DNA of 64,000 nucleotides from an uncultured Planctomycetia bacterium (GCA_964483625.1 CAZABB010000001.1:3222-67221); one strand, 5' to 3'. Counted from the stretch's first letter, positions 35,677 through 61,662 are shown. Numbers and translations are program-made. The notes: generated by a model from the letters alone, not told the origin.

Positions 35677-35895
35677 TTACGATTGCCGCAGACTATTGTC
35701 GGCATCAGGCTCATAACCGTGGGGAGAACACCAGAACGTATTTTCCGGACGTTCTCTCCTGCGCCCGATAAGAAAATAATATATACACATGCACACAGCG
35801 GTTATCCCCACACCGATGATGTACACAATGACCAACGCCATCTTAAGACAAGTTTTCCGCACGGATTGCATCAGACTCCGCAATCTCCGTTTCAC
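35677..35895 (-). CDS. small hypothetical membrane protein (72 aa, one TM helix)
   Basis: The ORF sits directly between the amidotransferase and carbamoyltransferase genes and has a hydrophobic core (LKMALVIVYIIGVGITAVCMCIYYFLIG). A second 40-aa hydrophobic ORF lies on the minus strand at 35515..35630 (MIRRHKVYFLTPLFFLLILLVLLAYYLGPAVVVTFIYAGI). Confidence 0.35.
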   Translation of the reverse strand: MKRRLRSLMQSVRKTCLKMALVIVYIIGVGITAVCMCIYYFLIGRRRERPENTFWCSPHGYEPDADNSLRQS

Positions 35896-35898
35896 GTT

Positions 35899-40289: not shown

Positions 40290-40304
40290 CGGGGTTTGAG
40301 GATT

Positions 40305-45001: not shown

Positions 45002-45970
45002 ATGAATGTATTCTTTAGGTACCATATGGAAAACCACCCGGCCAAACAAAAAATCGCGACCGTACAGATCGATGTTGACGGAGAATGGGTTATTTTTCAG
45101 CACTTTGGCTATGATGTCCATAATCCGGTAGACCGGATGTATGAATCATCCCTGCCGCGATTTCTTGATCTGTTCGACCAATACGGCATTAAAGCGACAT
45201 TGTTTGTGGTTGGCAGAGATTTGAAAATCCAACGCCGGGTACACCTTTTGAAAGAGGCCGTCGCCAGAGGACATGAGATTGCTAATCATACCATGAACCA
45301 TGCCGAAGGATTCTCCTGTCTGCCTCTTTCGAAAAAAAAAGCTGAAATATACGAGGCCGATACGATCATAAAAGATACCCTCGGTATCGCCCCCAAAGGA
45401 TTTCGCGCCCCTTCCAACGATGTGGATACCGAAACCCTGGGCATACTCCAGGATTTCGGCTATCAATACGATTCGTCCCTGATGGCAACCTACTGGGGTC
45501 CCTTGATACGATGGGTAAAATTTTTCTCACTGCGCACCGGTCGTAAAGACCATTATTTAGGAAGATTCTTTCATGGACGCGCGCCGCTTTTTCCCTACCA
45601 TCCCGATCCCGACTGCATCTTCAAGAAAGGCTCGATGGATATCATCGAGGTGCCGATTACAACCATGCCGTTTTTCCGCATCCCCTTCCATGTCAGTTTC
45701 ACCTTTGCCACCTACGCTTTGGGATTGGGATTAGCTCTGTTTAACACCGGCTACTCACTGCTGAAGCACACGTCTCTTCCGCTCAATCTGATATTTCACA
45801 CCAATGAGCTTGCCGATCCGTTCTCTGACAAACGGATCAGAAGACAATTGGGCCTGAACTTGCCGCTTAAAACCAAAGAAATGATCTGCCGCCATATTTT
45901 AGACCACATAACGAAAGATTTTATACTCCTGCCTACACGTGAATACGCCACCTCCCTTGACGTTCAATAG
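45002..45970 (+). CDS. polysaccharide deacetylase-family protein (CE4 / NodB-homology)
   Basis: Motif 1 variant QIDVDG, then KATLFVVGRD, motif 2 HEIANHTMNH and an RAPS motif. Confidence 0.7.
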   Translation: MNVFFRYHMENHPAKQKIATVQIDVDGEWVIFQHFGYDVHNPVDRMYESSLPRFLDLFDQYGIKATLFVVGRDLKIQRRVHLLKEAVARGHEIANHTMNHAEGFSCLPLSKKKAEIYEADTIIKDTLGIAPKGFRAPSNDVDTETLGILQDFGYQYDSSLMATYWGPLIRWVKFFSLRTGRKDHYLGRFFHGRAPLFPYHPDPDCIFKKGSMDIIEVPITTMPFFRIPFHVSFTFATYALGLGLALFNTGYSLLKHTSLPLNLIFHTNELADPFSDKRIRRQLGLNLPLKTKEMICRHILDHITKDFILLPTREYATSLDVQ

Positions 45971-45993
45971 GCGTATGATAGAATCAGTTTACC

Positions 45994-46701
45994 ATGCAAG
46001 ACAAAGAGGTTTCCCTTATGTTTTCCGGCGGTGTCGATTCAACGATCACCGCGATCACTCTTGCCGAACAATACCGTCACGTGCATCTTCTTACCTACGG
46101 GAATGCTCACGGCCATTACCATATGGAACGAAGCGCGAAAAGAGCAGAGGAACTGAATGCGAAATTCGGCAATAAGTTCACTCACCGGCTTATTCCTATC
46201 GAAGACCTTTTCCGGCAAATGGTATTAGATACCCTCGAAGAAGATTATAAAAAATACGGTTCGGGTTTCATCTGGTGTCTGGGATGTAAAATGACCATGC
46301 ATACCCGCAGTATTATGTATGACCTTACATATGGCATACAACATGCCTGCGACGGCTCGTCTCAGGATACCGATGAGATGGTCGAACAGATGGTCGTAAG
46401 CATTACGCTTATAAAACAGTTTTATGAAAAAAACGGCATCGATTTTTCCGTCCCCACCTACACACAGCCCCGCAGTGAGAAGAGAAAGATGCTTAAAGAA
46501 CTGAAATTCAACATGGGCATCCCGGTGGGTGATCGGTATATAGGTATCCAGCCCCGCTGCATTCCCGGAGAACTGTATTATCTACCCTACCTTATTTTTA
46601 ACAAAGCCCTGGGACACGATCGGAATAAAGTCATACAATTTATCGAAGAAAAACAGCAGATCGCCGAAAGGTATCTCAAGGAACATCTTAATCATGGGTA
46701 A
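45994..46701 (+). CDS. PP-loop ATPase (adenine nucleotide alpha-hydrolase superfamily; QueC/ExsB-like)
   Basis: SLMFSGGVDST PP-loop at the N-terminus, a CxxC pair (WCLGCK) and ~235 aa length. The exact subfamily is uncertain. Confidence 0.5.
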   Translation: MQDKEVSLMFSGGVDSTITAITLAEQYRHVHLLTYGNAHGHYHMERSAKRAEELNAKFGNKFTHRLIPIEDLFRQMVLDTLEEDYKKYGSGFIWCLGCKMTMHTRSIMYDLTYGIQHACDGSSQDTDEMVEQMVVSITLIKQFYEKNGIDFSVPTYTQPRSEKRKMLKELKFNMGIPVGDRYIGIQPRCIPGELYYLPYLIFNKALGHDRNKVIQFIEEKQQIAERYLKEHLNHG

Positions 46702-48412
46702 ATGTTGCGACGGTAAAAACGCGTATAAACCGATATCGAAACTGCGTTACTGGGCCGGGATGCTATTTTTCTGCGTTCTTCATCTGCATTTCAGATGTAA
46801 AATGTTCCTGCGACATCTTCTGGTAAAGAAATACACTCATTATCCTGAACTTTCCCGGTTCCATGCGCGTTATTTCAAAGAAACCCTGCAGAGCGTCCTG
46901 AAAAAAGAAGGGCTCAACGTAAACACGTCGCTTTCATTCATGAAGGTATTATGGAAGGCATTCGTTGCGATTGTTTTCTGCGTCATATTCACTCTCTCCC
47001 TTTTTTATTTCAACGGGCCGGCAAAGGGATACTGGGATACCTACATTACCCTGCCGGCAATGTTTATGGCCGATGAGCCGGCTCAATTGACGACGAAAGA
47101 AGGAGAAATCCTCTATGAATACACGTTACCGGGTACCTTACCCGATAATTTAGTGGACAAAGAGACGTACGGGATCATCTCCAAAGACCAGCGTCTGGGG
47201 ACGGCGATCCTTTTTGCTCCGTGGTTTTCCCTTTTTCACCAATTCGGTTTTCGCCTGCTTTTTGCGATGATTGCCACGCTGACCGCCGGGCTTGTATTCC
47301 TTACCCAGAAGGAGGTCGGTTCCCGAAAATCGATAGCGCTGTTCATCGGTGCATCTTCTGTTCTCAATGCCTATGTCTTGTCTATCGAGACGCTCAATCC
47401 CAATATTGCCGGAATGCTTCTCATATCCCTGCTTCTTTACCTTATGGTAAGAAAAGATCCGCCCTGGTTTCTCGCGGGACTGCTGTACGGCGTTTTGGGA
47501 GGCACCCGCAATATTGCCATTCTCTTTACTCCGGCACTTTTGTTTGCGCTCATCGCGTGGTCGCCGCACAAGAAAAAAGACGGCCTGTTTTTCTTTCTGG
47601 GATCTCTTCTTGCTATCGCCCCCATACTTTACTGGAATCATTTTGCCTTCGGCAATCCATTGATACATCCTTCTCAATTTGCCGGGCTGGAAGGATTCCG
47701 TCCTACGTTTGAACACACGTTTCTTTTCTGGAAATTCGACTTTAACGGTATGTTTAATTTTCCTCTTTATCACGAAATTGTCCGGACTCCCTATTTTGCG
47801 TTCCCCACGTTCTTAACTCTTCCCCTTACCATCCTCAGCACGTTCGGCGTCATTCTTTCTGCCCTTATCGGCACCGGCATCATCTCTCTTTGGCGGAATC
47901 AACGACGACAATGCGTCTTCCTTCTCCTCTGGCTGATACCGATATATGCGATGCTGTCGATCCAGGAAAACTGGAGCGATATGAAGATGACGTTTCTTTT
48001 CCTGTGTTTCCCCTCCCTGCTCATTTTCATGGGATACGGCCTGGAGAGCTTATTCGTTACAAAGGACCTGAAAAGGAATATTTTTTCAACCATCACGTTG
48101 AGCATCATTCTTTTTTGCCTCGTCCGCGCGGCTTTTGCGCTTGAATGTCCCGTGGACGAGCGGTGGTACGTCCGTTTCCCCCGCGCGCGCGGTCAAGGAG
48201 ACATTTGCTATATTGGCGATGATCTGAGGACGGAAAAAGAAGATCCGCAAGAACTTCATGAACAAAAGAAGAGGTTAACGCAAGGGAATCTGCTTCCCCG
48301 AATATCTATTCCTGATATTGATCCGGAAGGAACAGGAGCGGTTATGCACCGGGAGATGCGACAAAGAAGAATAAGGGTCGTAGATTTCTGGAAATATATT
48401 TACGAAGAATAA
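46694..48412 (+). CDS. polytopic membrane protein, putative GT-C-like glycosyltransferase (paralog of 55890..58121)
   Basis: About 12-14 TM helices. Conserved blocks are shared with the protein at 55890..58121 (NAYVLSIETLNPNIAGMLL vs NPYVLSIEVLDRNVINLAL; GLLYGVLGGTRNIAILFTPALLF vs GLMFGIMAGTGLRFLSLLCLIPVLF). Confidence 0.55.
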   Translation: MGKCCDGKNAYKPISKLRYWAGMLFFCVLHLHFRCKMFLRHLLVKKYTHYPELSRFHARYFKETLQSVLKKEGLNVNTSLSFMKVLWKAFVAIVFCVIFTLSLFYFNGPAKGYWDTYITLPAMFMADEPAQLTTKEGEILYEYTLPGTLPDNLVDKETYGIISKDQRLGTAILFAPWFSLFHQFGFRLLFAMIATLTAGLVFLTQKEVGSRKSIALFIGASSVLNAYVLSIETLNPNIAGMLLISLLLYLMVRKDPPWFLAGLLYGVLGGTRNIAILFTPALLFALIAWSPHKKKDGLFFFLGSLLAIAPILYWNHFAFGNPLIHPSQFAGLEGFRPTFEHTFLFWKFDFNGMFNFPLYHEIVRTPYFAFPTFLTLPLTILSTFGVILSALIGTGIISLWRNQRRQCVFLLLWLIPIYAMLSIQENWSDMKMTFLFLCFPSLLIFMGYGLESLFVTKDLKRNIFSTITLSIILFCLVRAAFALECPVDERWYVRFPRARGQGDICYIGDDLRTEKEDPQELHEQKKRLTQGNLLPRISIPDIDPEGTGAVMHREMRQRRIRVVDFWKYIYEE

Positions 48413-48681
48413 TGGACATGATTGTTTCTCTTTTTATCGCGATATACGCGTTCTTTCTTCCCGGCTACCTGGTCACAAAAACCAGTCGTATCGGCAATGG
48501 TCTGTTTACTACGATAATTCTCAGCATTGCCATAAGCATAACACTGATTCCTATTATCGCCTTCTCGCTCGCAATGATTTTTCATACGGTCATACATTAC
48601 GCAACAGTTACGATCGCGGCAACTCTCGTCAACCTGATCTGCATCGGCCACCGCTATCTTAAAAAGGTCAAAACACAATGA
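48412..48681 (+). CDS. small membrane protein (89 aa, 3 predicted TM helices)
   Basis: Start and stop codons overlap both neighbours. Almost entirely hydrophobic (IVSLFIAIYAFFLPGYLV...IILSIAISITLIPIIAFSLAMIF...). Confidence 0.5.
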   Translation: MDMIVSLFIAIYAFFLPGYLVTKTSRIGNGLFTTIILSIAISITLIPIIAFSLAMIFHTVIHYATVTIAATLVNLICIGHRYLKKVKTQ

Positions 48682-50342
48682 ATATTCTCGCTCTGCATGA
48701 AGACAGCAATGCCAATATTACCTTCCTCGCGAATACCGAAATCGTGTTTTCGGTTGCCGAAGAACGGTTTACCCGTAAAAAACATCAGGGAGGATTCCCT
48801 CGGGAATCGCTTGCCTACCTGTTCAAAAAATACGATCTTGCGCCGAACGATATCGATGTTATCGTCTGCGGGAACCGTTATCATCCCTTACCCCGTCTCC
48901 TGGGACCTTATTTCCCCAGTCATGAGCACGCTTTTTTAGGATGGGGACAAAAAGTATCTCTTTACTACCAACATGCCCTCTCTAAAAGCCTTCTCCTCCG
49001 CTCTGCCGTAGAAAAACTTAACCATTGTCTCCTTACCCATAAGTTCAAAAGAAGCATATTTCTCGTCGACCATCACACCGCTCATGCCTATGCGACATAT
49101 CTTACTTCAGGCTTTTCCGAAGCACTTATTATCAGCGCCGACAACTATGGAGACGGGGTGGCTGCGGCGGTATTTACCGGTAAAGAGGGAACATGCACTA
49201 TGCTCTACTCTTCTTCGGCACTCCATTCTCCGGGACAGTTCTATGGTGAACTGGCTCAGATTCTCGGATTTCACCCTCTCATGGCCGGAAAAATGACCGG
49301 TCTCTCGGCCTACGGAGACCCCGGCCGGGCGTATCCGCTTGTAAAAGAATTGTTCGGGTTGACGCCCGACAAGAAAGATTTTGTATTGCCGTCTCTCTTC
49401 TTTAAATCACCGAACCGGGGCATTTTTCAGAAACTGCGGGCGTATAAAAAAGAAGATGTTGCTGCGGCGGCACAAAGAAGGTTTGAAGAAGTAATCGTCT
49501 CCTACGCCAGAGAAGCGTTGAGGACGACCGGCTTAAGAAAAATTGCTCTTGCCGGCGGTATTTTCGGTAACGTCTGTCTCAATAAGAAAATCGCTGAGCT
49601 TGAAGAAGTAGATGAGATCTTTATCCATCCGGGGATGAGTGATCAGGGAATCAGCCTGGGAGCGGGTTTGGCATACTTGGCTCAAGAAAAAGCCATACAG
49701 CCTTTTCGGATAGAAAACGTGTACTGGGGACCCCAGTACAATGGCGACCAAATCAAACAGACACTTACCCAACAGAATGTTGCTTTCCTCTATGACCCTC
49801 ACATCGAACAGACCGTGGCTGATCTCCTGGCTCGCGGTAAGGTGGTAGCTCGGTTTAACGGACGAACCGAATACGGTCCGCGGGCCCTGGGCAACCGCAG
49901 TATCCTCTACCGGACGACGGACGGAACCGTAAATGACTGGCTGAACCGAAAACTGCGCCGTTCTGCATTCATGCCGTTTGCTCCCGTAACTCTGGAGGAA
50001 GAAGCTCAACGGTGTTACAACCATATCCCTAAGATAGCTTATACGGCAAAATTCATGACGATTGCCTGTGAATGCACCGAATGGATGAAATCGGTATCGC
50101 CGGGAGTGGTGCATATCGATTCAACCGCCCGGCCGCAGATTCTTTCGCAAACCGATAACCCTTCCTATTACGCGATCCTTAAAGAATATCATCGTCTGAC
50201 CGGCATTCCCAGTCTGATCAATACCAGCTTTAATATGCACCACGAACCGATTGTCAACACTCCGGCTGAGGCGCTCGAGGCATTTTTACAAGCCGGAATT
50301 GACTACCTGGCGATCGGCAACTATCTTGTGGAAAAACAATAA
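48678..50342 (+). CDS. carbamoyltransferase, NodU/CmcH/TobZ family
   Basis: MNILALHEDSNANITFL..EERFTRKKH. Length 554 aa. Same architecture as the proteins at 33792 and 54126. Confidence 0.85.
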   Translation: MNILALHEDSNANITFLANTEIVFSVAEERFTRKKHQGGFPRESLAYLFKKYDLAPNDIDVIVCGNRYHPLPRLLGPYFPSHEHAFLGWGQKVSLYYQHALSKSLLLRSAVEKLNHCLLTHKFKRSIFLVDHHTAHAYATYLTSGFSEALIISADNYGDGVAAAVFTGKEGTCTMLYSSSALHSPGQFYGELAQILGFHPLMAGKMTGLSAYGDPGRAYPLVKELFGLTPDKKDFVLPSLFFKSPNRGIFQKLRAYKKEDVAAAAQRRFEEVIVSYAREALRTTGLRKIALAGGIFGNVCLNKKIAELEEVDEIFIHPGMSDQGISLGAGLAYLAQEKAIQPFRIENVYWGPQYNGDQIKQTLTQQNVAFLYDPHIEQTVADLLARGKVVARFNGRTEYGPRALGNRSILYRTTDGTVNDWLNRKLRRSAFMPFAPVTLEEEAQRCYNHIPKIAYTAKFMTIACECTEWMKSVSPGVVHIDSTARPQILSQTDNPSYYAILKEYHRLTGIPSLINTSFNMHHEPIVNTPAEALEAFLQAGIDYLAIGNYLVEKQ

Positions 50343-50344
50343 TC

Positions 50345-51745
50345 CTACGAAAGCCGCAAACAGATTTTTACGGCGGTTTTGAAAACCTGCAGATAATCCA
50401 GCCGGATACGCGTGAGAAAAAAGATCGTCAATTCCAGAAGCTTACGGGGACGGAAATAAAACTGTTTAAGGATCTCGCGGTGCAACCGGGTAAGTTCATC
50501 GGTGCTTAATGTATCGTTACGGATAATAGATTTACGTAAAAACACGTAATCATCCCAGTTGTCGGAAAGAATACGGTTTTCTTTCAGGCACTCGGCATAT
50601 AATTGCGTTCCCGGCAGAGGCGCGGCAAAAGAAAGCTGTAAAGTGTGGGGATTCAATGTGAAGATCTTCTTCTTGGTATAAAGGATATCTTCTTTTGTCT
50701 GATGGGGAAAACCGATAATCGCATAGCCCATGGCGATAATCCCCTGTCGTTTGATGCGGTCGATTGCTTCGGCGATCTGCACCTCGGTAATATCTTTCTT
50801 AAGGATCGAAAGATTCCGATCATGAGCACTCTCGATACCAATACCAATCTGGAGGCAGCCTGATCGTTTCATCACCTTAAGGGTATCTTCATCTAAAAGA
50901 TCGACACGGGTGTTACACACCCAGCGGATACGCCGATTAAGGTTATGCTGAATGATGCCAGTACATACTTGCCGGACAAAATCCGGCTGGACGGTGAAGG
51001 TATGGTCGATAATCGCAAAATAAGAGGTATTAAACGTGTGAATGCATTGTTCTATTTCCCCGACAATCGCCTCCGGTTTCCTTAGACGCGCCGCGCCGGG
51101 ATACAACAAATGGCTGTCACAAAATACGCACCTTCCCGGACACCCGCGGCTCGTACGCAAAGCGGTTACGTGACGCCGATAAGGAGATGAATATAAATCA
51201 TTAGGCAGCAGGTCCCGGGCCGGATAAGGTAACGAATCAAGATCCGCAATCACAGGATGATTTTCGGTAGAGACAATCTGGCCGTGTTCACGATAGGTGA
51301 TACCTTTGATCGACGCCAATGATGCTCTCTGTGCTGCCGCTTCGATAACCTGGGCAACGACCCGTTCCGGCTCTCCCCGGACGACGACATCCAGCCCCTC
51401 GATCTCCTTCAGCGTCTGGTGAGACAGAGCCGAAGCATGTGTCCCGATCAGAACAGTCATTACATTATTTTTTTTAAGCAGGTTGATCAGACGCTTGACA
51501 GAATTGACCGAATAGGTTTGTGCGGTAAATACGGCAACGTTAGGCCTCACCGCCAGAAGACGTACCCCTTGGGCACTTTCATGCAATTTAAGTACATTCG
51601 CATCAAGTATCGATATATCGAAATCGGGATTACGCCGGCGCAGAAAAGACGCGCAATAGGCGAGATCCAAAGGAGGAACAACACTGAGCAGAGAAGTATG
51701 TTCTACCTTTCGCTGATAGTATGTATTGGAAAAAATTACTCTCAT
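50345..51745 (-). CDS. cobalamin-binding (class B) radical SAM enzyme
   Basis: TSRGCPGRCVFCDS and an N-terminal B12-like Rossmann region (DISILDANV...VLIGTHAS). Confidence 0.85.
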   Translation of the reverse strand: MRVIFSNTYYQRKVEHTSLLSVVPPLDLAYCASFLRRRNPDFDISILDANVLKLHESAQGVRLLAVRPNVAVFTAQTYSVNSVKRLINLLKKNNVMTVLIGTHASALSHQTLKEIEGLDVVVRGEPERVVAQVIEAAAQRASLASIKGITYREHGQIVSTENHPVIADLDSLPYPARDLLPNDLYSSPYRRHVTALRTSRGCPGRCVFCDSHLLYPGAARLRKPEAIVGEIEQCIHTFNTSYFAIIDHTFTVQPDFVRQVCTGIIQHNLNRRIRWVCNTRVDLLDEDTLKVMKRSGCLQIGIGIESAHDRNLSILKKDITEVQIAEAIDRIKRQGIIAMGYAIIGFPHQTKEDILYTKKKIFTLNPHTLQLSFAAPLPGTQLYAECLKENRILSDNWDDYVFLRKSIIRNDTLSTDELTRLHREILKQFYFRPRKLLELTIFFLTRIRLDYLQVFKTAVKICLRLS

Positions 51746-51749
51746 ATGA

Positions 51750-52895
51750 TCAGAATCCGCCTAAAGAAGACACCCAGTTAGGACTCACTTCACACCCCAG
51801 CCAGCACTTCCCGCAATGAACGACCTTGCGCAATTTATTTTTCGCGATCGGTTTATTCAAGATATCCGAATATGATTCCCGTTTAACATTTCCCAAAACT
51901 TCGGTATCATAGCTACAAGTGATTATATCACCATTGGGATGAAGACGGAAATGCGTAAATAAATTCATACAGCGATGCTGCGGCATACGTCCCGTCTGAA
52001 GCACATTCATTTGTCCCTTTAGATAGTGAGCCAGAATGATGCGTTCAAGGATATGTCGCCACGAGCCGCTTCCCTTTACCCCAAGAGAAAGGATATCCGT
52101 AGTAAGATTTTGGCGAATATAATCCCGAACCGGAGCGCTGAATTCTATCAGACCATAATCAGCCCGTTCGATTCCTCCCTCTTTCAACCCGACAAAACCG
52201 CGGTAGTCTACGTCCAAATCATCGGCAAGTTTTTTCACCCGAGGGATTTCATGTACATTCTCCGGAAAAACAGTCTGATTGACGGCAAGGAAAAGTTTTT
52301 TCCGGCTGAAACGGCTCCTGAGACGCCGGAGAGTATCTACGGCACGGGAGAAACTTCCTTCCTTCCCGCGTAACGCATCGTGTGTCGTGCTCATGCCATC
52401 GATACTGACTTTGAGATCGAGTGAAACCCCTCGCTTCTTTAACAACATGATCTTCCCGACAATGTCCTCGGTAGCATATCCGTTGGTTGTAATATGAAAG
52501 ATGCGCGGTTTGATGCGGGAATGAAACGCTAAAAGGATTTCGGTTAAATCTTCTTTCAAGAAAGGTTCACCTCCCGTGATCACCACGGCATCAATATTAT
52601 GTAACATATTGTCTTCAAGCATGTTACGAATATCCTTCTCCCGGAGTTCTTCATGATTTTTTTCGGCAGGAGAGCGCCAAGCTCCGCAATGTTTACAGGC
52701 GAGATTACAGCGGAACGTAACCGCATAATTAACCAGAAACGGCCGGGACGGTCTATTCAAGCCGCGGCGCACATTCGCACGAAGAAAACGAAAGAGATAA
52801 GAAGCCATCATACGCATTTTTTTCTCAGCAGATAGAGAACAATCCTTTTTAAACGCCGGGGGGGAAGATAAAACAGTAAAGGAGCAACGCAACAA
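51750..52895 (-). CDS. radical SAM enzyme with SPASM domain
   Basis: VTFRCNLACKHC and TGGEPFL motifs. C-terminal region CSYDTEVLGNV...ILN...CGKCWLGC. The start is probably at 52817 (MRMMASYLF). Confidence 0.85.
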   Translation of the reverse strand: MLRCSFTVLSSPPAFKKDCSLSAEKKMRMMASYLFRFLRANVRRGLNRPSRPFLVNYAVTFRCNLACKHCGAWRSPAEKNHEELREKDIRNMLEDNMLHNIDAVVITGGEPFLKEDLTEILLAFHSRIKPRIFHITTNGYATEDIVGKIMLLKKRGVSLDLKVSIDGMSTTHDALRGKEGSFSRAVDTLRRLRSRFSRKKLFLAVNQTVFPENVHEIPRVKKLADDLDVDYRGFVGLKEGGIERADYGLIEFSAPVRDYIRQNLTTDILSLGVKGSGSWRHILERIILAHYLKGQMNVLQTGRMPQHRCMNLFTHFRLHPNGDIITCSYDTEVLGNVKRESYSDILNKPIAKNKLRKVVHCGKCWLGCEVSPNWVSSLGGF

Positions 52896-54208
52896 GATAA
52901 ACCAACGAAATATCTTCCCAGCCCTTTATATTGAACAATATCGGAAACCCCGTGGTAATAGCGGTTCCAGGATACCTGAGGGAACCGGTTGAAATAGTCG
53001 GTCCCGGGATAGGGAGTTAACGAATAGAAGTGCGCGAAATCAAGGGAAGAACATACCGTCTGAAATATCGTATTAACGACGGTTTTCTTTGTCTGCCCTT
53101 CCAGTCCGAAAATGAAATATCCATATGTCATTATGTCGTGCTTTTTTAAAATATCAATACCTCTCAATATATCCGGGCCTTTGATATATTTCCGATTACG
53201 ATGCAAAACCCTTTCGTCAAAAGATTCAATTCCCAAAGACAGCAACATGCAACCGGATTCTTTCATCAAAGCCGCCGTCTCTTCATCCACCACATCAACC
53301 CGCGAGTTAGAGACCCATCGGATATCGAGCCGCTCATCAATAATGCGCCGGGTAAGATTTTTCACGAAATCCTTATCGGCATTGAACGTATCGCACAGGA
53401 AGAGAAACGTATCAATGCCGCAAGTTTCTTTTACCTCGCGGATTTCGGCGATGATATTGCCGACCGAGCGGGCGCGCCAGCCTCGTCCGTAATAGGACCG
53501 GGAGGTACAGAATGAACAGGCCGAGTCGCATCCACGCGAGACTTTCACCACAGAAAATTTCTTCCCCGTAAAGGGCATAATATACCGTTCATTTTTCAGG
53601 AGAGACCGGTCGGGAAGAACCGGATAGTCGTAGCTGACGCGGGACTTCCTTCTTTCGTTTACTTTAATCACCCCGTTTCGGTACGCCAGCCCCCGGATCT
53701 CACCCAGAGGTCTCCCTTCTCCCGAGAGCGATTCCATCAGCTCACATATCGTCTCTTCCGGTTCGCCCTGTACGGCAAAATCAACGGCTTCTTCTTCCAA
53801 TAATTTACGGGGGAAAACCGTGGCGTGAAGGCCGGTAAAAATGATACGCAGATCCTTATTCTTTTGCTTTAACCGGCGGGCTAAAAAGACATCGTCCTCG
53901 ATTGTCGGCGTGGTCGCCTGAATAATCACAGTCGACGGCTCTCGGCATAATATCTCCTTGACCAATTCCTCAAAAGAGAATCCTTCGATTTCTCCGTCAA
54001 GAATATCTATATTATGAAAGCCCCGATGCCGGAGATAAACGGCGATCTCCAAAAGGGTAATCGGCGGCCATAATCCTACGGCAGGCAGAACTTTCTGCTG
54101 ACAGCGTTCAACACGCAGGACTTTCTTACCGGACCGCGTAACCGGATTGCATAAAAGAATCTTCTCTTTTTTTGTCATTGCGTTTATCGAACAAAGGATT
54201 TGTAACAA
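52808..54208 (-). CDS. cobalamin-binding (class B) radical SAM enzyme
   Basis: SRGCDSACSFCTS and an N-terminal B12-like region. The start is possibly at 54178 (MTKKEKILLCNPV). Confidence 0.85.
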   Translation of the reverse strand: MLQILCSINAMTKKEKILLCNPVTRSGKKVLRVERCQQKVLPAVGLWPPITLLEIAVYLRHRGFHNIDILDGEIEGFSFEELVKEILCREPSTVIIQATTPTIEDDVFLARRLKQKNKDLRIIFTGLHATVFPRKLLEEEAVDFAVQGEPEETICELMESLSGEGRPLGEIRGLAYRNGVIKVNERRKSRVSYDYPVLPDRSLLKNERYIMPFTGKKFSVVKVSRGCDSACSFCTSRSYYGRGWRARSVGNIIAEIREVKETCGIDTFLFLCDTFNADKDFVKNLTRRIIDERLDIRWVSNSRVDVVDEETAALMKESGCMLLSLGIESFDERVLHRNRKYIKGPDILRGIDILKKHDIMTYGYFIFGLEGQTKKTVVNTIFQTVCSSLDFAHFYSLTPYPGTDYFNRFPQVSWNRYYHGVSDIVQYKGLGRYFVGLSCCVAPLLFYLPPRRLKRIVLYLLRKKCV

Positions 54209-55880
54209 GGAAATTTTCCATGATCAGATAATCCAGACCGGCCTGGAAGAACGTATCCAGAGCTTCTCGCGGCGTACAGACAATCGGTTCGTGGTGCATA
54301 TTAAAGCTGGTATTGATCAGACTGGGAATGCCGGTCAGACGATGATACTCCTTAAGTATGTCATACAATAAAGAATTATCGTGCTCTTTTAAAATTTGAG
54401 GCCGGGCCGTCCTGTCCCGATACACGACCCCCGGAGATACCGCTTCCATCCACGGGGTACACTCAAGACTAATGGTCATAAACCGCGCCGCCGTCTCTGC
54501 TCCAGAAACATTCTTATAACACGCGTCTTTATATTCAAAAAGCGTAACGGGCGCGAAGGGCATAAATTCGGACCGGCGCAGTTTTTTGTTCAGCCAGTCA
54601 TTTACGCTTTTATCGGTTGTCTGATAAAGAATACTGCGGTTACCCAGCGCCCGCGGGCCGTATTCGGTCGCCCCCTGAAAAACCGCTACGGTAGCTCCGC
54701 GCGATAATAATCGGGCCGCTTTTGCTTCGAGACGTTTTTCTTTTTGATATCTCAGATGGTTTTGTTCGAGCATTCCTGCGATATGGGCATCCGAATAGCG
54801 GGGCCCCAGATATACATGAGAAAGACGGACGGAGGAAGAAAAAGAAATCCCCGAGTATTCGCTCTCTCCTTTTTTTTCCTGTGACGCCGCGGCAAAAGAA
54901 AGCCCACCGTCGCCCATATGGGGGAAAACAAAAATTTTCCCGAACAACCCGGTTGCGTGTAACCGCTGGTTTACTTTGACATTGGCAAAAAGCCCTCCGG
55001 CCAGGAAAAGATCGGGACCCTTTTTCTCTCCGACGCAGTTTTTTATCAGCCCTACCACGGTATGTTCAACCGTCCTCTGTAAAGAAAAAGCAACGTCTTT
55101 TTTTCTGTATCGTTTGAGCATTTTGAAAAAACGCCGGGTGCGGTAGAAAGGATCGACGAAAACGTCCTTCCCTTCTATCGTGAACAGCGATTTAAATATC
55201 TTCCCCAGAGAAGTGGCACTTCCGTATTCGGCCAGGGCGACCACCTTGCCTTCTTCTCCTTCTCTAAACCCCAGAGCAGCAGTAACATAGGCATACACCA
55301 GGGCAATGCTGTGTTTATACGATATCTCCTGCCGCAAGACTACCCGGTCGTCTCTGACCCGGACAATCAGCCCCGCTTTCCCGTCGCCATACGCATCCAG
55401 AGATACTGCCAGATAATTCCGGGAAGGAATCCCGGTACAGGCGGAAATAATATGCGCCTGGTGATGATCGACCAGATGAAGGCTGCCGAAAGAAATCCCC
55501 ATCCGTCTCAACCGGACGGCAAGGATCCACCGGCTGAATGTGGATTCCATCTCTCTTAAAAGGGGAAGAGAAGCTGTTTTATTTTCATACTGGTAGACGG
55601 CACGGGAAGGGAAAGAAAGAATATTCTTTTGAGGCGAACCTGTACGATACAAATTATTCAACAATCGAAACGGCGCCCGGCCGTAGCGGCCTCCGATATA
55701 TACGGCATCTATCGTCTTTGTTCCGATGATTCCTTTGATATATTTTAATGAACGGTAAGGGAACCCCTGTTGTCGTTTACGGCGGCTAAAGCGTTCTTCC
55801 GAACATGCAATCACAACATTCCCATTCTCGATGAGAATGGCGGAGGCATCATGGCTATCGTTTATTCCTAACGCAATCAT
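54126..55880 (-). CDS. carbamoyltransferase, NodU/CmcH/TobZ family
   Basis: MIALGINDSHDASAILIENG..EERFSRRK. Length 584 aa. The C-terminal region (ATEYGPRALGNRSILY...IPSLINTSFNMHHEPIV) is nearly identical in motif to the protein at 48678. Confidence 0.85.
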   Translation of the reverse strand: MIALGINDSHDASAILIENGNVVIACSEERFSRRKRQQGFPYRSLKYIKGIIGTKTIDAVYIGGRYGRAPFRLLNNLYRTGSPQKNILSFPSRAVYQYENKTASLPLLREMESTFSRWILAVRLRRMGISFGSLHLVDHHQAHIISACTGIPSRNYLAVSLDAYGDGKAGLIVRVRDDRVVLRQEISYKHSIALVYAYVTAALGFREGEEGKVVALAEYGSATSLGKIFKSLFTIEGKDVFVDPFYRTRRFFKMLKRYRKKDVAFSLQRTVEHTVVGLIKNCVGEKKGPDLFLAGGLFANVKVNQRLHATGLFGKIFVFPHMGDGGLSFAAASQEKKGESEYSGISFSSSVRLSHVYLGPRYSDAHIAGMLEQNHLRYQKEKRLEAKAARLLSRGATVAVFQGATEYGPRALGNRSILYQTTDKSVNDWLNKKLRRSEFMPFAPVTLFEYKDACYKNVSGAETAARFMTISLECTPWMEAVSPGVVYRDRTARPQILKEHDNSLLYDILKEYHRLTGIPSLINTSFNMHHEPIVCTPREALDTFFQAGLDYLIMENFLVTNPLFDKRNDKKREDSFMQSGYAVR

Positions 55881-55889
55881 TATCCTCTC

Positions 55890-58121
55890 TCACAGGTAGC
55901 TTTCCGGCTCGCCATAGAAAAAATGTATGGAGAATTCTCCCCCTTTGTCTCTCTGGATACACCAGGAATCGCGACGATAGGAAGCCCCGTCTTCTCCGTT
56001 CACAAACCAATTATGTATGAGCACTTTCATGTCGTCGGGGATGCGAATAACAATAGACTGTTGCTGATGCAAAAGAGGAAAGGCGGGAAGGGCGGGTTGA
56101 CGCGCGCTATGCCGAGGAGAATCCGGCGAATGCACACGGATGGGACTCACGACATCGAGTCCGAACGAATTATTGCCAGAGGAAGAAAAGGCATTCAGGT
56201 CTATCGTGCAGGTTTTTAGATAATCGATTTTTTTCGGATCGATAAAAACGCAAACGGGAAGAGACTCCGCCTGCCACGTCACCTCAAGATCAGTATAATA
56301 GAGATCGTACAGCTCCTCACGGTTCACAAGGTCAATTGCCGGCAGTTCTTCATGAGGGATTATACGAATCGCATCCTGAATATCATTACAGAGTTTTTCA
56401 AAGTTAATCTTAATATAAACCTCTCTCGGCTTTGAATCTTTTCCCGGAGAAGAAAACGGACATTTATGGTTACCGAGAACATCCCATTGAGAATAAAACT
56501 CTTTAAATCGGGTATAACGCGGTAGGTTATGCGGGGGAAACAGCTGATTCAGCGCAAGCTGTTCTTTTTTTCGTTTATGTGTGAAATCCAATTTGGTGAA
56601 AAGTCTCCGGTAGTTCGGGAGAAAAGGGGTTTGCGATACCGTACCCCTTGCCAGCCGATAATACGCGTGGCTCTCTGTCTGATAGAGCGGATAACGTTCG
56701 TAAAAACTCTTGTCCTGAGGAAAATCAAGAGATGCGGCAAAACGGATGCACCCAAAAAGAAACAGCAGGTTTAAAGCAAAAAGTCCTATCTTTTTCATGT
56801 TCATTCTACGAATGAGGCTTTCGGCCCCGCAGGCAAAAAACACATAGAGAGGCAAAAAGGCCGTCACGATGATCCGATACTTATCGCTCTGGATCCAGTT
56901 GCGCTGAACCGAAAGCACTCCCAGTACCGCAAGGAAGAAGGAAAGAAGAAACAACGCTTTTTTACGATCCCGGCCAAAAACGGAACCCAGCCCGAACAGA
57001 ATAATTGCCGAAATGAGATAGCCAAAGTAATTAATTATATTCACAGTGTAGAAAAGTAAGTTCGGAAAAGGCACAAAGGGCGTCCTCATCCATCGCGTAA
57101 AAGACTCCTTGAGCAGGCTCAAGGAAGAACGCGTTTCCCCCAGACTCTGAAATCCATGGTGCATAAGATGGGGGATGTTAAAAGAAAACGTGAACAGCCC
57201 GGCAACAAAAAAAAGCATATAGTCCTTTGCGCCCTTTTCCTCCCGATAGTACCAGAATAGCACCGGGATGAGGCAGAGAAGAGAAAGAAAGCGCAAGCCC
57301 GTGCCGGCCATGATGCCGAACATAAGACCGTGAAGGATGACTTTATTTTTATGGAAAAATATCGTATAAATAAAAACAGCCGACAATGCGAGATTGATAA
57401 CGTTGCGGTCCAAAACCTCTATCGATAACACATAAGGGTTGAAAATTGCGAAACAGGCGCCAAGGCAGGCAATAATATCGGGCAAGAACATTCTTTGGAG
57501 GATAAGATAAACAAATATAAAAAGGAGAATCGCAAAGGATATATATACCGCTTTAAACGTGGCCAACTTAAGAAGGGGAAGAAAAGGTGCGGTAAAAAGA
57601 GTATTGCCCGGGGTATTAATAATCGCTGAAACCGCGGGCACAAGTCTCTCTGAATACCCTTGAGGATTTAAGAGTCCATAGAGACGGAACGTCTGCATCG
57701 CAAAACAATCCGCTTCTCCTCGGAGAACATACGAACCAAGTGATAAAATAAATGCTTCGTTGGAATAATAGAAAAAAGAAACCATGCCCGTTAGTAAAAT
57801 CAGAAACAAAAATAACCAGCGACGTTTTAACTCAGAACATATGCGTTCAAAGGTTAAAGTTACTCTGTTTATTTCGTGGCGGAAATATACCAGGCAAAAA
57901 AATACGGTGACATAGAGACAGGAGAACGAAAGGATAAGCCAGAGGTTGATATAATAGTTGAGCCAGAGTGAAAGGTTGACGGCCAAAAACGGGAGGCAGG
58001 TAAGACTAAAAAAGACGGTAAAACCTGTTTTTTCCGGCAGGGGGGCATGTTGAAAAAAATATTCTGTGGTTAAAAAACCCGCAGCGAGGATAAGCAATAA
58101 CAGAGCTGTTACCAGTAACAT
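55890..58121 (-). CDS. polytopic membrane protein, putative GT-C-like glycosyltransferase with large C-terminal periplasmic domain (paralog of 46694..48412)
   Basis: About 14 TM helices in the first ~470 aa and a ~270-aa soluble C-terminal domain. Blocks are shared with the protein at 46694. Confidence 0.55.
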   Translation of the reverse strand: MLLVTALLLLILAAGFLTTEYFFQHAPLPEKTGFTVFFSLTCLPFLAVNLSLWLNYYINLWLILSFSCLYVTVFFCLVYFRHEINRVTLTFERICSELKRRWLFLFLILLTGMVSFFYYSNEAFILSLGSYVLRGEADCFAMQTFRLYGLLNPQGYSERLVPAVSAIINTPGNTLFTAPFLPLLKLATFKAVYISFAILLFIFVYLILQRMFLPDIIACLGACFAIFNPYVLSIEVLDRNVINLALSAVFIYTIFFHKNKVILHGLMFGIMAGTGLRFLSLLCLIPVLFWYYREEKGAKDYMLFFVAGLFTFSFNIPHLMHHGFQSLGETRSSLSLLKESFTRWMRTPFVPFPNLLFYTVNIINYFGYLISAIILFGLGSVFGRDRKKALFLLSFFLAVLGVLSVQRNWIQSDKYRIIVTAFLPLYVFFACGAESLIRRMNMKKIGLFALNLLFLFGCIRFAASLDFPQDKSFYERYPLYQTESHAYYRLARGTVSQTPFLPNYRRLFTKLDFTHKRKKEQLALNQLFPPHNLPRYTRFKEFYSQWDVLGNHKCPFSSPGKDSKPREVYIKINFEKLCNDIQDAIRIIPHEELPAIDLVNREELYDLYYTDLEVTWQAESLPVCVFIDPKKIDYLKTCTIDLNAFSSSGNNSFGLDVVSPIRVHSPDSPRHSARQPALPAFPLLHQQQSIVIRIPDDMKVLIHNWFVNGEDGASYRRDSWCIQRDKGGEFSIHFFYGEPESYL

Positions 58122-58291: not shown

Positions 58292-61200
58292 CTACTGCTC
58301 GTCACTGTCCTGTTCTAATTCTTGCAATAACTCCCGTGCTTCTTCACCAGCAAACTTCAACCCAATAATCGTCTCCAACATTCGTCTGGCTTCCTCAGGA
58401 TTATCTGTTTTGCGATAGAGTCTCCCCAACGCCACATAACTTTCATATTGGGAGGGTTCTAATTCAATACTTTTTTTAAGAACGTCTATTGCCTGTTCAT
58501 AATTTTCCTGTGCCTGATAAACCTCAGCTAATCCGGTATACAGAGATATCTCCTCTGGATATATCTGAATTCCCTTCCGATACCACCGTACAGCTTCCGC
58601 ATAATCCCCTTGCTGGGAAGAAACCATCCCCAACCCCCGATAAATGTCGGCGGCGGGATCAAATTCTAAAGCCTTTTTAAACCACTTCTGTGCTTCACTA
58701 TTATTTCCCTGAACCTGATATATCCACGCCAACGCTCCGTAGTTATCGCTCACATCGGGAGTCGACACAATCCCTTTTTGATACCATTTGATTGCTTCGG
58801 CATAATTTCCCTGACCGTAATAAATGCTGCCAAGACCATGATAGCCATAGGGATCTTCGGAATCTATCTGGATTGTTTTCTTAAACCACTTGGTTGCTTC
58901 GGATACATTTTCTTTTTCCCGGGCGATCCATCCCAACCCGACATAATGATTACTGTTTTCGGGGTCGCATTCGATAGCTTTCTCAAATAACTCAGAAGCT
59001 CGGGTAAAATCTTTTTGGTCAAGAAAAATCCAGGCCAATCCATTATAGCTCATTCCATCGTCGGGATTGCTTTCCAGAGCACGCTGGAACCATTCTTTTG
59101 CTTCGTCATAATCACCCTGCTGACGATAAATTTCACCAATACCTCTATAGCCGGTGACTGACGTGGTATCACGGGAAATCCCTTGTTTGAACCATTCTAT
59201 CGCCTCATCGTATTTACCCTGAGCTGATGCGATATGAGCAAGCCCCATATAATTTTCCGGAAATTCCGGGGCAACTTCAACCCCTTTTTTATACCATTTC
59301 GCCGCCTCATCCCGATCTCCCCGGCGATGATAGATTCCCGCTATGCCAACATAGCTATCTCCTATCTTGGGAGCCTTTTCGATCGCACGCATAAACCATT
59401 CTATCGCCTCATCGTATTTACCCTGCTCCGAAACAACATGCCCAAGATACACATAGTGATCCGGGACTTCTGGATCGACTTCAATTGCCTTCCTGTACCA
59501 CCGCTCTGCTTCATCCCATTTTCCCCGCCGGCGATAGACATCGGCAATGCCCCTATACACGTCTTCTCCTTCATACCCTTTTTCTAGCGCGCGTTGAAAT
59601 AATTCTATCGCCTCATCGTATTCGCCCCGGGTTAAAGCACTATACCCGAGACCCACATAGTTTGATACCGACTCCGGCGCGATTTCAACCGCTTTCTTGT
59701 ACCACCGGGCCGCCTCATCCCATTCCTCCCTCTGACGATAGATATCGGCAAGCTCAGCGTATCCCTGTTTTTCTTCGGGATTTTTTTCTATGGCACGCAT
59801 AAACCATTCTATGGCTTCATCATGCCTGTCTTGAGCAGAAGCGATTTGCCCCAGCCGCACATAATAGGCCGCCTGCGGTACCACAGCGATCGCTTTCTTA
59901 TACCATTCGACAGCCTTCTCCAGGTTTCCCTGCTGGAAATATACTTCAGCGGTATCCCGATAAATTTCCCCATCCTGCCGGTCTTTTTCTATCGCGCTTT
60001 CAATCCATTTCTCAGCTTCGGCATATTCCCGTCGCTGCAAAAACATCAACCCAATCAACCTGTAAGCTATACTATTCTCAGAATTTATCTCTATCGCCCT
60101 GCCCCACTGTTTCTGTGCCAATGCAGATTGACCCATCTGTTGGTATGCCATACCAAGCTGTACATAAATGTAATAATTATCTGCTCCGGGAGTGATATAG
60201 TTGAGGCCTTTTTCAAACGATTCAACCGCTTTTTCATATTCTTTCTTCTGCAAATAGATTCTCCCTATCCCTTCGTACGCATCGTAAGGATTGATTTCAA
60301 TTCCTTTTTTAAACCATCCCATGGCTTCGTCATACTTATTCTGAGCAAAAAATATATCTCCCAAAAGCACATAGGCTTCGGGGCTATCCCGATCATTCAT
60401 TTTGACAGCTTTATCCAACCACGTGAATGCCTGTTCATATTTGTTCTGCCTAAAATATATCCGCCCCAGACCAACATACGCACGGGTATCGTTTTGATCG
60501 TCTACTGCCAATGCCTTCTGAACCCATTGGATCGCTTCGTCATACTTACCTTGGTTCTCTTTTATCGCCGCGAGTCTCAGATAACTATTGCTATGGGAAG
60601 GATTGATGTGTAGTGATTTTTGATACCATTGGATCGCCTGGTCATATTTTCGTAGAGCCGCAAAACTTCCCCCAAGCTGATCCATACTCTCGATATCATC
60701 CGGTTCCTTTTCTATCGCGCGTTTAAACCACTCTATCGCTTCCCGGAATTCTCCGCGCGACTTATATACCAATCCGATGCCATGGTACCCCTGAGCATTA
60801 TCCGGCTCTATTTCGGTTGCCGTGCGAAAAGCTTCCATTGCTTTTTCGTCTACCCCTTGCGAAAGATAACTATAGCCTTTTCCCACATACAGATCGCTAT
60901 CATCGCGAATCCCCATGGATAAACCTTTCTCAAACCACTTTAAAGCATTCTCGTAATCTGCCTGCCCATGGTATATCCAACCGAGAATTACATATGCATC
61001 GCGCTGTTTGGGATCATTCTCTGCTCCTTCTTTAAGCCATTCGATCGCTTCTTCAATATTTCCCTGATCACGATAGGCCTCTCCCATCCCCACATAATTC
61101 TCCGCAACCGAAGGCGCAGCCTCAATCCCCCGTCTGTATAATTGCATCGCCTGATCAAGCTCTCCCTGAGAATAATAGGCCCACCCGAGGGCTCGATATA

Positions 61201-61609
61201 TCTCACCATCACCGGGATTTTTATCCAGAGCCTTTTTTAACCAGGAAATTGCTTCTTCAAGTTTGTTTTCTCTTAAAAGAATAAAGGCAATTTGCGCGTA
61301 GTTGCCATAAAACTCGGGCACAGCGGCTATCCCTTTCTTAAGTAATTTGATCGCTTCTTGATAATTACCTTGCTCTGCATACAGGCGTCCCAGCTGACGA
61401 TAATAATTCCCCTCCCCAGGAGTGCTGATAATCTGTTGTCTAAACCATTCAATAGCCTCATTTATCCTGCCCTGCTGAATAAGCTTAGTTCCCTTGTCGG
61501 GATTTTGGGCGGCGATACTATGCGGCACCGGAATCAAACTCAACATACTCACAAAGAGAAGGAAAACAACATGTCGACAACTGAACATTATATTTTCTTT
61601 ACGCCTCAT
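58292..61609 (-). CDS. secreted giant tetratricopeptide-repeat protein (~30 TPR units, 1105 aa)
   Basis: Signal peptide (MFSCRHVVFLLFVSMLSLIPVPHSIAAQ) followed by uninterrupted 34-aa repeats of pattern ..Y..LG..Y..QG.YdEAIeWfkKAle.dP. Confidence 0.85.
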   Translation of the reverse strand: MRRKENIMFSCRHVVFLLFVSMLSLIPVPHSIAAQNPDKGTKLIQQGRINEAIEWFRQQIISTPGEGNYYRQLGRLYAEQGNYQEAIKLLKKGIAAVPEFYGNYAQIAFILLRENKLEEAISWLKKALDKNPGDGEIYRALGWAYYSQGELDQAMQLYRRGIEAAPSVAENYVGMGEAYRDQGNIEEAIEWLKEGAENDPKQRDAYVILGWIYHGQADYENALKWFEKGLSMGIRDDSDLYVGKGYSYLSQGVDEKAMEAFRTATEIEPDNAQGYHGIGLVYKSRGEFREAIEWFKRAIEKEPDDIESMDQLGGSFAALRKYDQAIQWYQKSLHINPSHSNSYLRLAAIKENQGKYDEAIQWVQKALAVDDQNDTRAYVGLGRIYFRQNKYEQAFTWLDKAVKMNDRDSPEAYVLLGDIFFAQNKYDEAMGWFKKGIEINPYDAYEGIGRIYLQKKEYEKAVESFEKGLNYITPGADNYYIYVQLGMAYQQMGQSALAQKQWGRAIEINSENSIAYRLIGLMFLQRREYAEAEKWIESAIEKDRQDGEIYRDTAEVYFQQGNLEKAVEWYKKAIAVVPQAAYYVRLGQIASAQDRHDEAIEWFMRAIEKNPEEKQGYAELADIYRQREEWDEAARWYKKAVEIAPESVSNYVGLGYSALTRGEYDEAIELFQRALEKGYEGEDVYRGIADVYRRRGKWDEAERWYRKAIEVDPEVPDHYVYLGHVVSEQGKYDEAIEWFMRAIEKAPKIGDSYVGIAGIYHRRGDRDEAAKWYKKGVEVAPEFPENYMGLAHIASAQGKYDEAIEWFKQGISRDTTSVTGYRGIGEIYRQQGDYDEAKEWFQRALESNPDDGMSYNGLAWIFLDQKDFTRASELFEKAIECDPENSNHYVGLGWIAREKENVSEATKWFKKTIQIDSEDPYGYHGLGSIYYGQGNYAEAIKWYQKGIVSTPDVSDNYGALAWIYQVQGNNSEAQKWFKKALEFDPAADIYRGLGMVSSQQGDYAEAVRWYRKGIQIYPEEISLYTGLAEVYQAQENYEQAIDVLKKSIELEPSQYESYVALGRLYRKTDNPEEARRMLETIIGLKFAGEEARELLQELEQDSDEQ

Positions 61610-61662
61610 GTACCCCTCCTTTTATCTTATACAATCCTCTTTTCAATATCTCATCTCAACTC

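Follow-up and report, generated by a model that had tools for sequence, protein, structure and literature searches.

Two GT-C-fold membrane proteins, two carbamoyltransferases and three radical SAM enzymes in a conserved cassette that probably builds a carbamoylated surface sugar

A 64,000-nucleotide stretch of DNA from an uncultured Planctomycetia bacterium (GCA_964483625.1 CAZABB010000001.1:3222-67221), hereafter the window, raises the question of what is made by a group of genes in which two polytopic membrane proteins and two carbamoyltransferases, laid out as mirror images on opposite strands, converge on three radical S-adenosylmethionine (SAM) enzymes. The membrane proteins are referred to here as memA (plus strand) and memB (minus strand), the carbamoyltransferases as CTA and CTB, and the two radical SAM enzymes with B12-binding domains as B12a and B12b. 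It is proposed, with a probability of about one half, that the ten genes from 45002 to 58121 are one cassette for tailoring a lipid-carried sugar and bringing it to the cell surface. The weaker claim, that these genes form one surface-glycan tailoring unit, may be made with more confidence than the full model, and the product is probably a carbamoylated surface sugar.

The computation on which this proposal draws covers folds, catalytic motifs, operon packing and conserved co-occurrence, with domain calls from a Pfam scan of the open reading frame (ORF) list and curated-family calls from NCBIfam equivalog models, none of which reached its cut-off for any of the ten cassette proteins. NodU/TobZ-type carbamoyltransferases consist of Kae1-like and YrdC-like domains and form carbamoyl-AMP from carbamoyl phosphate and ATP. 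Both domains are found in CTA (Carbam_trans_N 113.5 bits, Carbam_trans_C 191.3 bits) and in CTB (119.2 and 172.2 bits; cut-offs 24 and 27), and the two proteins, which a preliminary description had taken for paralogues, are indeed 41% identical overall (E 4e-136). CTA aligns with TobZ, NovN and GdmN at E 6e-61 to 2e-47 (TobZ E 6e-61), its H132, H136, D155 and D322 falling on the HHLAH, VDGQG and SDIG positions of TobZ, which we take to be the Kae1-like metal ligands of the TobZ structure, and it carries the YrdC-like motif GPRALGNRSIL (GPRALGxRS). The same metal-ligand positions and motif are present in CTB and are invariant in 15 CTA orthologues. CTA and CTB thus share with TobZ, NodU, NovN and GdmN both Pfam domains, the alignment and the metal-ligand positions. 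However, the known members of that group act on Nod factors or soluble antibiotics, with no GT-C protein as partner, whereas CTA and CTB form orthologue groups of their own that are tied to a GT-C subfamily, and they are not NodU equivalogs (126.7 and 107.8 bits, respectively, against a cut-off of 1000 bits).

The membrane proteins had likewise been described as paralogous and GT-C-like, and both points are borne out. In a pairwise comparison memA and memB are 26% identical over 348 aa (E 2e-25), and a profile-profile comparison links them with a probability of 99.9% (E 2.7e-36), far beyond chance. Both have a multi-transmembrane (multi-TM) GT-C fold in confident AlphaFold models built on alignments of 34 (memA) and 32 (memB) homologues, with a predicted local distance difference test (pLDDT) score of 84.8 and a predicted template modelling (pTM) score of 0.81 for memA, and 86.0 and 0.90 for memB. 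By sequence, both proteins fall outside curated families. memA matches PMT_2 (GT39/GT83-like, PMT/ArnT) marginally, at 27.8 bits against a gathering cut-off of 26.1, and PMT_2 is matched at E<=0.01 by 17 of 34 memA family members, with no match in memB or in any of 32 memB relatives; memB itself has no Pfam match. GT87 (DUF2029) matches neither memA nor memB and is found at E<=0.01 in three of 34 memA relatives and one of 32 memB relatives, and no NCBIfam model, ArnT and other named GT-C families included, matches either protein. The joint memA/memB superfamily comprises 762 clusters at E<=1e-3 among 1.84 billion representatives.

Catalytic features differ between the two. In memA an invariant acidic YWD motif (D115) lies right after the first core TM helix and D165/R167 are also invariant, as would be expected of the first outer loop of a GT-C enzyme. 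In memB four N-terminal TM helices are predicted, together with an outer loop unlike that of memA and a C-terminal beta-rich domain (residues ~567-735); a near-invariant E123 and invariant E235/D238 are present, but the outer loop cannot be aligned to memA's, the two proteins being alignable only from memA residue 156 and memB residue 162 onward. It is conceivable, mainly for memB, that one or both GT-C-fold proteins are non-catalytic and serve as scaffolds, for which PIG-U/GAB1 are precedents, or as polymerase- or flippase-like components, although this is judged improbable. The first 80 residues of memA (46694-46933; 'MGKCCDGKN...') correspond to a fused 'MGxCCxGKN' small protein with a conserved Cys-Cys motif, which is a separate gene of 87-106 aa in many relatives (e.g., 7754-8017 in locus L001 and 12334-12651 in locus L013) and sometimes adjoins the PP-loop gene instead of memA. 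In metagenome-assembled genomes (MAGs) labelled as deltaproteobacteria, this small gene is co-transcribed with the PP-loop ATPase.

Whether such an assembly of genes has any significance beyond this genome was addressed by a scan of one genome per species, in which 78 loci with a memA relative were found and 48, those flanked by 5 kb or more on each side, were counted. Detectable relatives number 83 for memA and 57 for memB, the closest (40-54% identity) coming from MAGs of Candidatus Omnitrophota. A NodU-type carbamoyltransferase lies within 10 kb of memA in 38 of the 48 loci, at a median distance of 827 bp, and at least two lie within this distance in 26. The PP-loop gene (~50% identical) and a SPASM-domain radical SAM gene are each found within 10 kb at 29 loci, a B12-binding radical SAM gene at 25, and a memB relative at seven. 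The carbamoyltransferases at memA loci fall into a clear group of CTA orthologues (44-52% identity) and a CTB group (33-38%). As a control, carbamoyltransferase motifs served as seeds for 80 metagenome loci: memA was present only at four loci, whose carbamoyltransferase was at least 61% identical to CTA, and a memA or memB relative stood beside none of the ~70 generic carbamoyltransferases (34-45% identity). The association of membrane protein, carbamoyltransferase and radical SAM enzymes that had been suspected from the window is therefore both conserved across phyla and specific. It could be argued that the genes merely cluster by chance in a very large glycan island, with no functional link between GT-C protein and carbamoyltransferase, since a 64-kb window dense in glycosyltransferases, with 15 radical SAM, four GT-C-like and three carbamoyltransferase genes, is expected to yield some adjacency. 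However, co-occurrence of the same specific orthologues in loci from different phyla, their restriction in the control to CTA-type enzymes, and operon packing with translational coupling (see below) largely refute this explanation, which retains hardly any credibility.

The mirror layout itself is a narrower phenomenon. In Omnitrophota the order runs deacetylase, PP-loop gene, memA (with the 'MGxCCxGKN' protein before it), small TM protein and CTA, converging on B12-binding radical SAM, SPASM, B12-binding radical SAM, CTB and memB; this arrangement is intact in at least four other Omnitrophota-type contigs, those of L008, L010, L011 (same contig as L001) and L107, at ~50-60% protein identity, and partial, cut by contig ends, in L009, L012, L086, L087 and L089; over intact and partial loci together identity is ~50-65%. 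Judged by these best relatives and their synteny, the window itself most likely derives from an Omnitrophota genome. The deacetylase is syntenic at 56-65% identity in L008, L009, L011, L012, L087, L089 and L107, and the 89-aa protein that follows memA keeps its position in Omnitrophota with a weakly kept sequence (30-49% identity; its counterpart in L001 is called as an 88-aa gene). Elsewhere the genes are disposed differently. Loci with DPANN or other archaeal titles (Woesearchaeota, Undinarchaeota, Nanobdellota or 'archaeon') carry a carbamoyltransferase, memA and a B12-binding radical SAM gene on one strand with the PP-loop gene opposite, and MAGs labelled as deltaproteobacteria or Myxococcota usually have one memA-type GT-C protein with A-type and B-type carbamoyltransferases that are often non-adjacent. 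Two sub-units are frequent, CTB followed by the SPASM gene and a B12-binding radical SAM gene followed by CTA, and none of the distant memB homologues examined (L005-L007) adjoins a carbamoyltransferase gene. Only Omnitrophota thus show strict one-to-one pairing and the mirror layout, and the notion that each carbamoyltransferase has a dedicated membrane partner does not hold beyond them, given the single memA with two carbamoyltransferases that is usual in MAGs labelled as deltaproteobacteria or Myxococcota, and the scarcity of memB.

These dispositions bear on the possibility that each carbamoyltransferase is docked to a GT-C partner of its own in a physical one-to-one complex acting on a membrane-embedded, lipid-linked glycan. 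Adjacent or near-adjacent co-directional pairs in all Omnitrophota loci, the one-to-one match of the two pairs in the window, and the position of the archaeal carbamoyltransferase ~250-350 bp upstream of memA would accord with docking. However, loci labelled deltaproteobacteria/Myxococcota usually have a single memA accompanied by two carbamoyltransferases, which lie 0.8-3 kb from it and on different strands, memB occurs in just seven of 48 loci, and CTB is more often beside the SPASM gene, and CTA beside a B12-binding radical SAM gene, than either is beside a GT-C gene. In addition, the active sites of the two families are placed on opposite membrane faces. A docked complex is accordingly unlikely, and the proposal of successive action on a lipid-carried sugar is preferred.

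Further neighbours of memA lend the cassette its context. A 229-aa GT2 glycosyltransferase precedes memA in 25 loci of other lineages, its best relatives being dolichol-phosphate mannose synthase, ArnC, AglJ, dolichyl-phosphate hexose transferase and PpgS. Other recurrent genes at memA loci encode a cysteine desulfurase-like class V aminotransferase, NifU and a UDP-N-acetylglucosamine (UDP-GlcNAc) 2-epimerase. Outside Omnitrophota a metallo-beta-lactamase (MBL)-fold protein (Lactamase_B_2/3) follows memA in 38 loci (e.g., L003 9707-10513 and L059 11463-12227), a position that is occupied in the window by the 89-aa three-TM protein. A conserved protein of ~300-320 aa (median 321) with no Pfam family occurs in 17 loci (e.g., L046 13846-14733).

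Within the window, the ORFs lie at the coordinates and on the strands previously assigned to them (Table 1), the extents needing correction only for B12b and the SPASM gene, whose starts were over-extended in the ORF list. The plus-strand module had been taken to begin at memA (46694-50342). Its genes are all present; the unit, however, begins upstream at 45002, as the deacetylase and the PP-loop gene are packed with the remaining genes and syntenic in relatives. The PP-loop gene and memA overlap by 8 nt, memA and the 89-aa gene share TAATG, and the 89-aa gene and CTA share ATGA, so that start/stop overlaps run from the PP-loop gene through CTA on the plus strand, as they do from CTB through the SPASM gene on the minus strand, while gaps of merely 4-9 nt separate memB from CTB and the SPASM gene from B12a. 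Such packing indicates translational coupling. The two units are transcribed toward each other, as had been noted, with the CTA stop codon (TAA) ending at 50342 and the B12a stop codon on the minus strand occupying 50345-50347, a gap of 2 nt; no terminator-like site was found at this junction, and the regional count of such sites was not above that of shuffles.

Table 1. Genes of the cassette and the inverted repeat shared by its two carbamoyltransferase genes.
Feature	Position	Strand	Remark
NodB-type polysaccharide deacetylase	45002-45970	+	First gene of plus-strand operon; Polysacc_deac_1 76.8 bits
PP-loop ATP pyrophosphatase, YcfA-like, 235 aa	45994-46701	+	FSGGVDST motif
memA, GT-C-fold polytopic membrane protein, 572 aa	46694-48412	+	PMT_2 27.8 bits, predicted structure
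Small protein, 89 aa, three hydrophobic segments	48412-48681	+	Hydropathy
CTA, NodU/TobZ-type carbamoyltransferase, 554 aa	48678-50342	+	Carbam_trans_N + Carbam_trans_C
B12a, B12-binding + Radical_SAM enzyme	50345-51745	-	Last gene of minus-strand operon
SPASM-domain radical SAM enzyme	51750-52817 (ORF list: to 52895)	-	Likely start ATG 52817 or 52808
B12b, second B12-binding + Radical_SAM enzyme	52808-54178 (ORF list: to 54208)	-	Likely start ATG 54178
CTB, second NodU/TobZ-type carbamoyltransferase, 584 aa	54126-55880	-	Predicted domain chimera
memB, GT-C-fold polytopic membrane protein, 743 aa	55890-58121	-	First of tightly packed minus-strand run
Inverted-repeat left arm	49845-50329		In 3' third of CTA; partner 54205-54689
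Inverted-repeat right arm	54205-54689		In 3' third of CTB; partner 49845-50329

The remaining enzymes are assigned to classes rather than to named families. The matches of the deacetylase to NCBIfam models are all sub-threshold, the 89-aa protein belongs to no Pfam, NCBIfam or PHROG family, and neither of the two small proteins has a match in PHROGs. B12a and B12b are 29% identical (E 5e-53), and both have an N-terminal B12-binding domain followed by a radical SAM core, a class B architecture from which use of cobalamin is predicted. The CxxxCxxC motif is present in all three radical SAM proteins of the cassette (from C202 in B12a, C227 in B12b and C63 in the SPASM enzyme). The best NCBIfam match of both B12-binding enzymes is BchE (208 and 182 bits against a cut-off of 481) and the second best HpnJ (185 and 163 bits against 578), both falling short, and the best solved relative of B12a is AprD4 (6fd2, E 2.6e-22). 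HpnJ and AprD4 both act on sugars, AprD4 on an aminoglycoside sugar. The SPASM enzyme (Radical_SAM 69.6 bits, SPASM 31.2 bits, plus Fer4_12) has a C-terminal cluster of cysteines at 309, 327, 361, 364 and 368, with no equivalog at cut-off. The PP-loop protein has its FSGGVDST (SGGxDS) motif at residues 10-17 and weak matches to Asn_synthase, DUF7411 and QueC, all below NCBIfam cut-offs. WbuX-type sugar amidotransferases are PP-loop enzymes that adenylate an amide carbonyl. The best solved relative of the cassette protein is the 6-thioguanine thioamide synthase YcfA (9kq6, E 1e-12), which adenylates a carbonyl oxygen before sulfur substitution in the synthesis of 6-thioguanine (PMC12494993). 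However, this similarity is distant (51 bits), the window holds no YcfC-type lyase, and cysteine desulfurase-like and NifU genes are found only in some loci of other lineages. Within 33792-36912 (minus strand), a third NodU-type carbamoyltransferase (33792-35483), which shares 30% identity with CTA and CTB, is accompanied by a PP-loop N-acetyl-sugar amidotransferase of WbuX-like type (175 bits against a cut-off of 203), and because the amidotransferase gene adjoins the third carbamoyltransferase the window contains two pairings of a carbamoyltransferase with a PP-loop protein.

As the substrates of the solved relatives of these enzymes, TobZ, NovN, GdmN and AprD4, are without exception soluble natural products, it might be supposed that the soluble enzymes tailor a nucleotide sugar or a cyclitol- or aminoglycoside-like molecule, leaving to the GT-C proteins no more than attachment or export of the product, or a role in some other glycan of the island. 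The presence in the window of an inositol-1-phosphate-synthase-like protein and of 12 further radical SAM enzymes would fit such a small molecule. However, the link to the memA-type GT-C subfamily is specific and crosses phyla, a GT2 resembling polyprenyl-phosphate-sugar synthases is frequent beside memA, and no polyketide, nonribosomal peptide synthetase or aminoglycoside core genes are seen among the annotated genes of the window. A soluble product is for these reasons considered doubtful, if less so than docking, and a lipid-carried sugar is retained as the working substrate.

The relationship between CTA and CTB is not uniform along their length and may say something of their division of labour. 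The Kae1-like N-domains are 28% identical, the YrdC-like C-domains 70%. In cross-phylum comparison the N-domain of CTB is 35-38% identical to B-type and 26-29% to A-type enzymes, whereas its C-domain is 49-58% identical to A-type and 33-40% to B-type enzymes. On these identities, CTB of the Omnitrophota layout is a chimera that joins an N-domain of B-type to a C-domain of A-type, with the breakpoint expected near residue 385-390. Accordingly, the two genes resemble each other at the DNA level, in inverted orientation, over their 3' thirds, with arms of 149 and 177 nt that are 76-77% complementary, because the A-type C-domain is common to both. Recent gene conversion between CTA and CTB was considered as its source and rejected, since C-domains of orthologues from closely related genomes are 93-96% identical whereas those of A/B pairs within a genome are ~75% identical. 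The exchange looks ancient and appears to be ancestral to the Omnitrophota carriers. Local inverted duplication was rejected as the origin of the mirror layout, because A and B types of each protein occur in other phyla, and both paralogue types of membrane protein and of carbamoyltransferase are, as judged from sequence comparison, ancient. CTA and CTB are read here as enzymes that would share the carbamoyl-AMP-forming chemistry and differ in their acceptors.

These data allow a model to be drawn in which we infer the lipid carrier, the order of the steps, the chemistry of each radical SAM and PP-loop enzyme, and the acceptor. This model proposes that a GT2 like dolichol-phosphate mannose synthase or ArnC, the gene for which adjoins memA in other lineages, loads a hexosamine-type sugar onto polyprenyl phosphate, and that the NodB-type enzyme may then deacetylate the lipid-carried sugar on the cytoplasmic side, as ArnD and NaxD deacylate lipid-linked sugars ahead of GT-C transfer. 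The three radical SAM enzymes may alter the sugar by C-methylation, dehydration or ring chemistry. CTA and CTB would carbamoylate it, once or twice, via carbamoyl-AMP from carbamoyl phosphate and ATP, a step placed in the cytoplasm because ATP and carbamoyl phosphate are needed, and the carbonyl of an amide or carbamoyl group may then be activated by the YcfA-like PP-loop ATPase, opening it to substitution. After flipping, memA and memB could pass the completed sugar or sugars on to an acceptor outside the cytoplasm, possibly a glycan or a protein. GT-C active sites face the extracytoplasmic side, and NodU/TobZ-type carbamoyltransferases need cytoplasmic ATP and carbamoyl phosphate; because the active sites thus lie on opposite membrane faces, sequential action on one lipid-carried sugar is likelier than a joint reaction. 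Two products or two positions are suggested by the differences between the GT-C proteins in their first outer loop and between CTA and CTB in the acceptor-side domain. A more elaborate version of the model, in which the PP-loop ATPase adenylates the carbamoyl group installed by CTA or CTB for S- or N-substitution on polyprenyl phosphate, yielding a thiocarbamate, an isourea/guanidino-like or a cyano group that the two GT-C proteins display as a new surface sugar, is quite unlikely, a shade more so than docking.

A lipid-linked substrate is plausible by analogy with known systems. In the Arn, Flm and PpgS-Rv3779 systems a GT2 loads polyprenyl phosphate, the sugar is tailored in the cytoplasm and flipped, and a GT-C enzyme transfers it outside; the Arn pathway comprises the GT2 ArnC, the deformylase ArnD, ArnE/F and the GT-C enzyme ArnT, and like Flm it modifies lipid A, while PpgS/Rv3779 modifies arabinogalactan, and FlmF2/NaxD/FlmK is a related system. 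The parts of the cassette fit the same logic of loading, tailoring, flipping and transfer. However, unlike Arn, the cassette lacks genes of ArnA/ArnB type, none of its proteins matches the NCBIfam models for ArnT, ArnC or ArnD, and it is extended by a pair of carbamoyltransferases, three radical SAM enzymes and a PP-loop ATPase. Lipid A is not possible as the acceptor in the archaeal carriers, whose existence makes it an unlikely acceptor in general. In hopanoid biosynthesis, HpnI (GT2), HpnK (deacetylase) and HpnJ (B12-binding radical SAM) form a like combination acting on a lipid-anchored hexosamine. However, that system itself has no GT-C protein or carbamoyltransferase, the B12-binding enzymes of the cassette fall far below the HpnJ cut-off, and no hopanoid genes are seen in the annotated window.

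Several observations weigh against the proposed lipid-carried sugar pathway. memB is without the memA-type acidic motif, and its outer loop cannot be aligned with memA's. No carbamoyltransferase is found at ten of the 48 memA loci, eight of which also have no PP-loop or radical SAM match, so that the memA GT-C family is not obligatorily tied to carbamoylation; some of these loci have a GT2 and/or an MBL-fold neighbour. Neither the 229-aa GT2 nor the MBL-fold neighbour has an orthologue in the window, none of whose many GT2 genes is a clear counterpart of the former. The taxon names in many locus record titles are placeholders and may be wrong. Further, the carbamoyltransferases could instead use a nucleotide sugar or a finished glycan precursor.

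The cassette sits in an island that is itself rich in related functions. Across the window (1-64000) there are 15 radical SAM genes (6 B12-binding, 8 SPASM and 1 neither), a very high density, together with about nine GT2 genes, two GT4/GT1-type genes, two deacetylases, an ABC-2 exporter and three large tetratricopeptide repeat (TPR) proteins. The four GT-C-like proteins of the window begin at 11191, 28841, 46694 and 55890. Consecutive myo-inositol-1-phosphate-synthase-like, xylose-isomerase-like TIM-barrel and SAM methyltransferase genes (7549-10220, minus strand) hint at cyclitol chemistry in the same island. Genes for SAICAR synthase and GTP-dependent phosphoenolpyruvate (PEP) carboxykinase (39402-42164, minus strand) lie within the island, and because such housekeeping genes sit there the region is taken to be part of the chromosome rather than a compact mobile cluster; GC content is even along the window (0.42-0.50). 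Large TPR-repeat proteins are encoded directly upstream of memB (58292-63414, minus strand) and beside distant memB homologues (L005 and L007), and may be partners of the memB GT-C subfamily.

Much is known of GT-C enzymes and of NodU/TobZ-type carbamoyltransferases separately, but they were not found described together as a conserved functional unit. In agreement with the expectation that the pairing was undescribed, the searchable literature yielded none, one query returning mostly unrelated matches, and a preprint on Omnitrophota genomes mentions radical SAM enzymes and glycosyltransferases solely in other contexts. The domain-chimeric CTB would illustrate cleanly how inverted paralogues can exchange domains. 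The cassette also suggests sugars as candidate substrates of orphan radical SAM enzymes, and the small size of the GT-C subfamily makes heterologous reconstitution realistic. Omnitrophota and DPANN archaea are ultra-small, host-dependent lineages; if the S- or N-substituted sugar were real, its occurrence both in these groups and in deltaproteobacteria of predatory type would suggest a glycan of cell contact that is exchanged horizontally. More generally, a cassette of GT-C protein, two carbamoyltransferases, PP-loop protein, SPASM radical SAM enzyme and B12-binding radical SAM enzyme recurs across bacterial phyla and archaea, and therefore predicts a carbamoyl-bearing surface glycan or glycolipid not yet described, in lineages with almost no cultured members.

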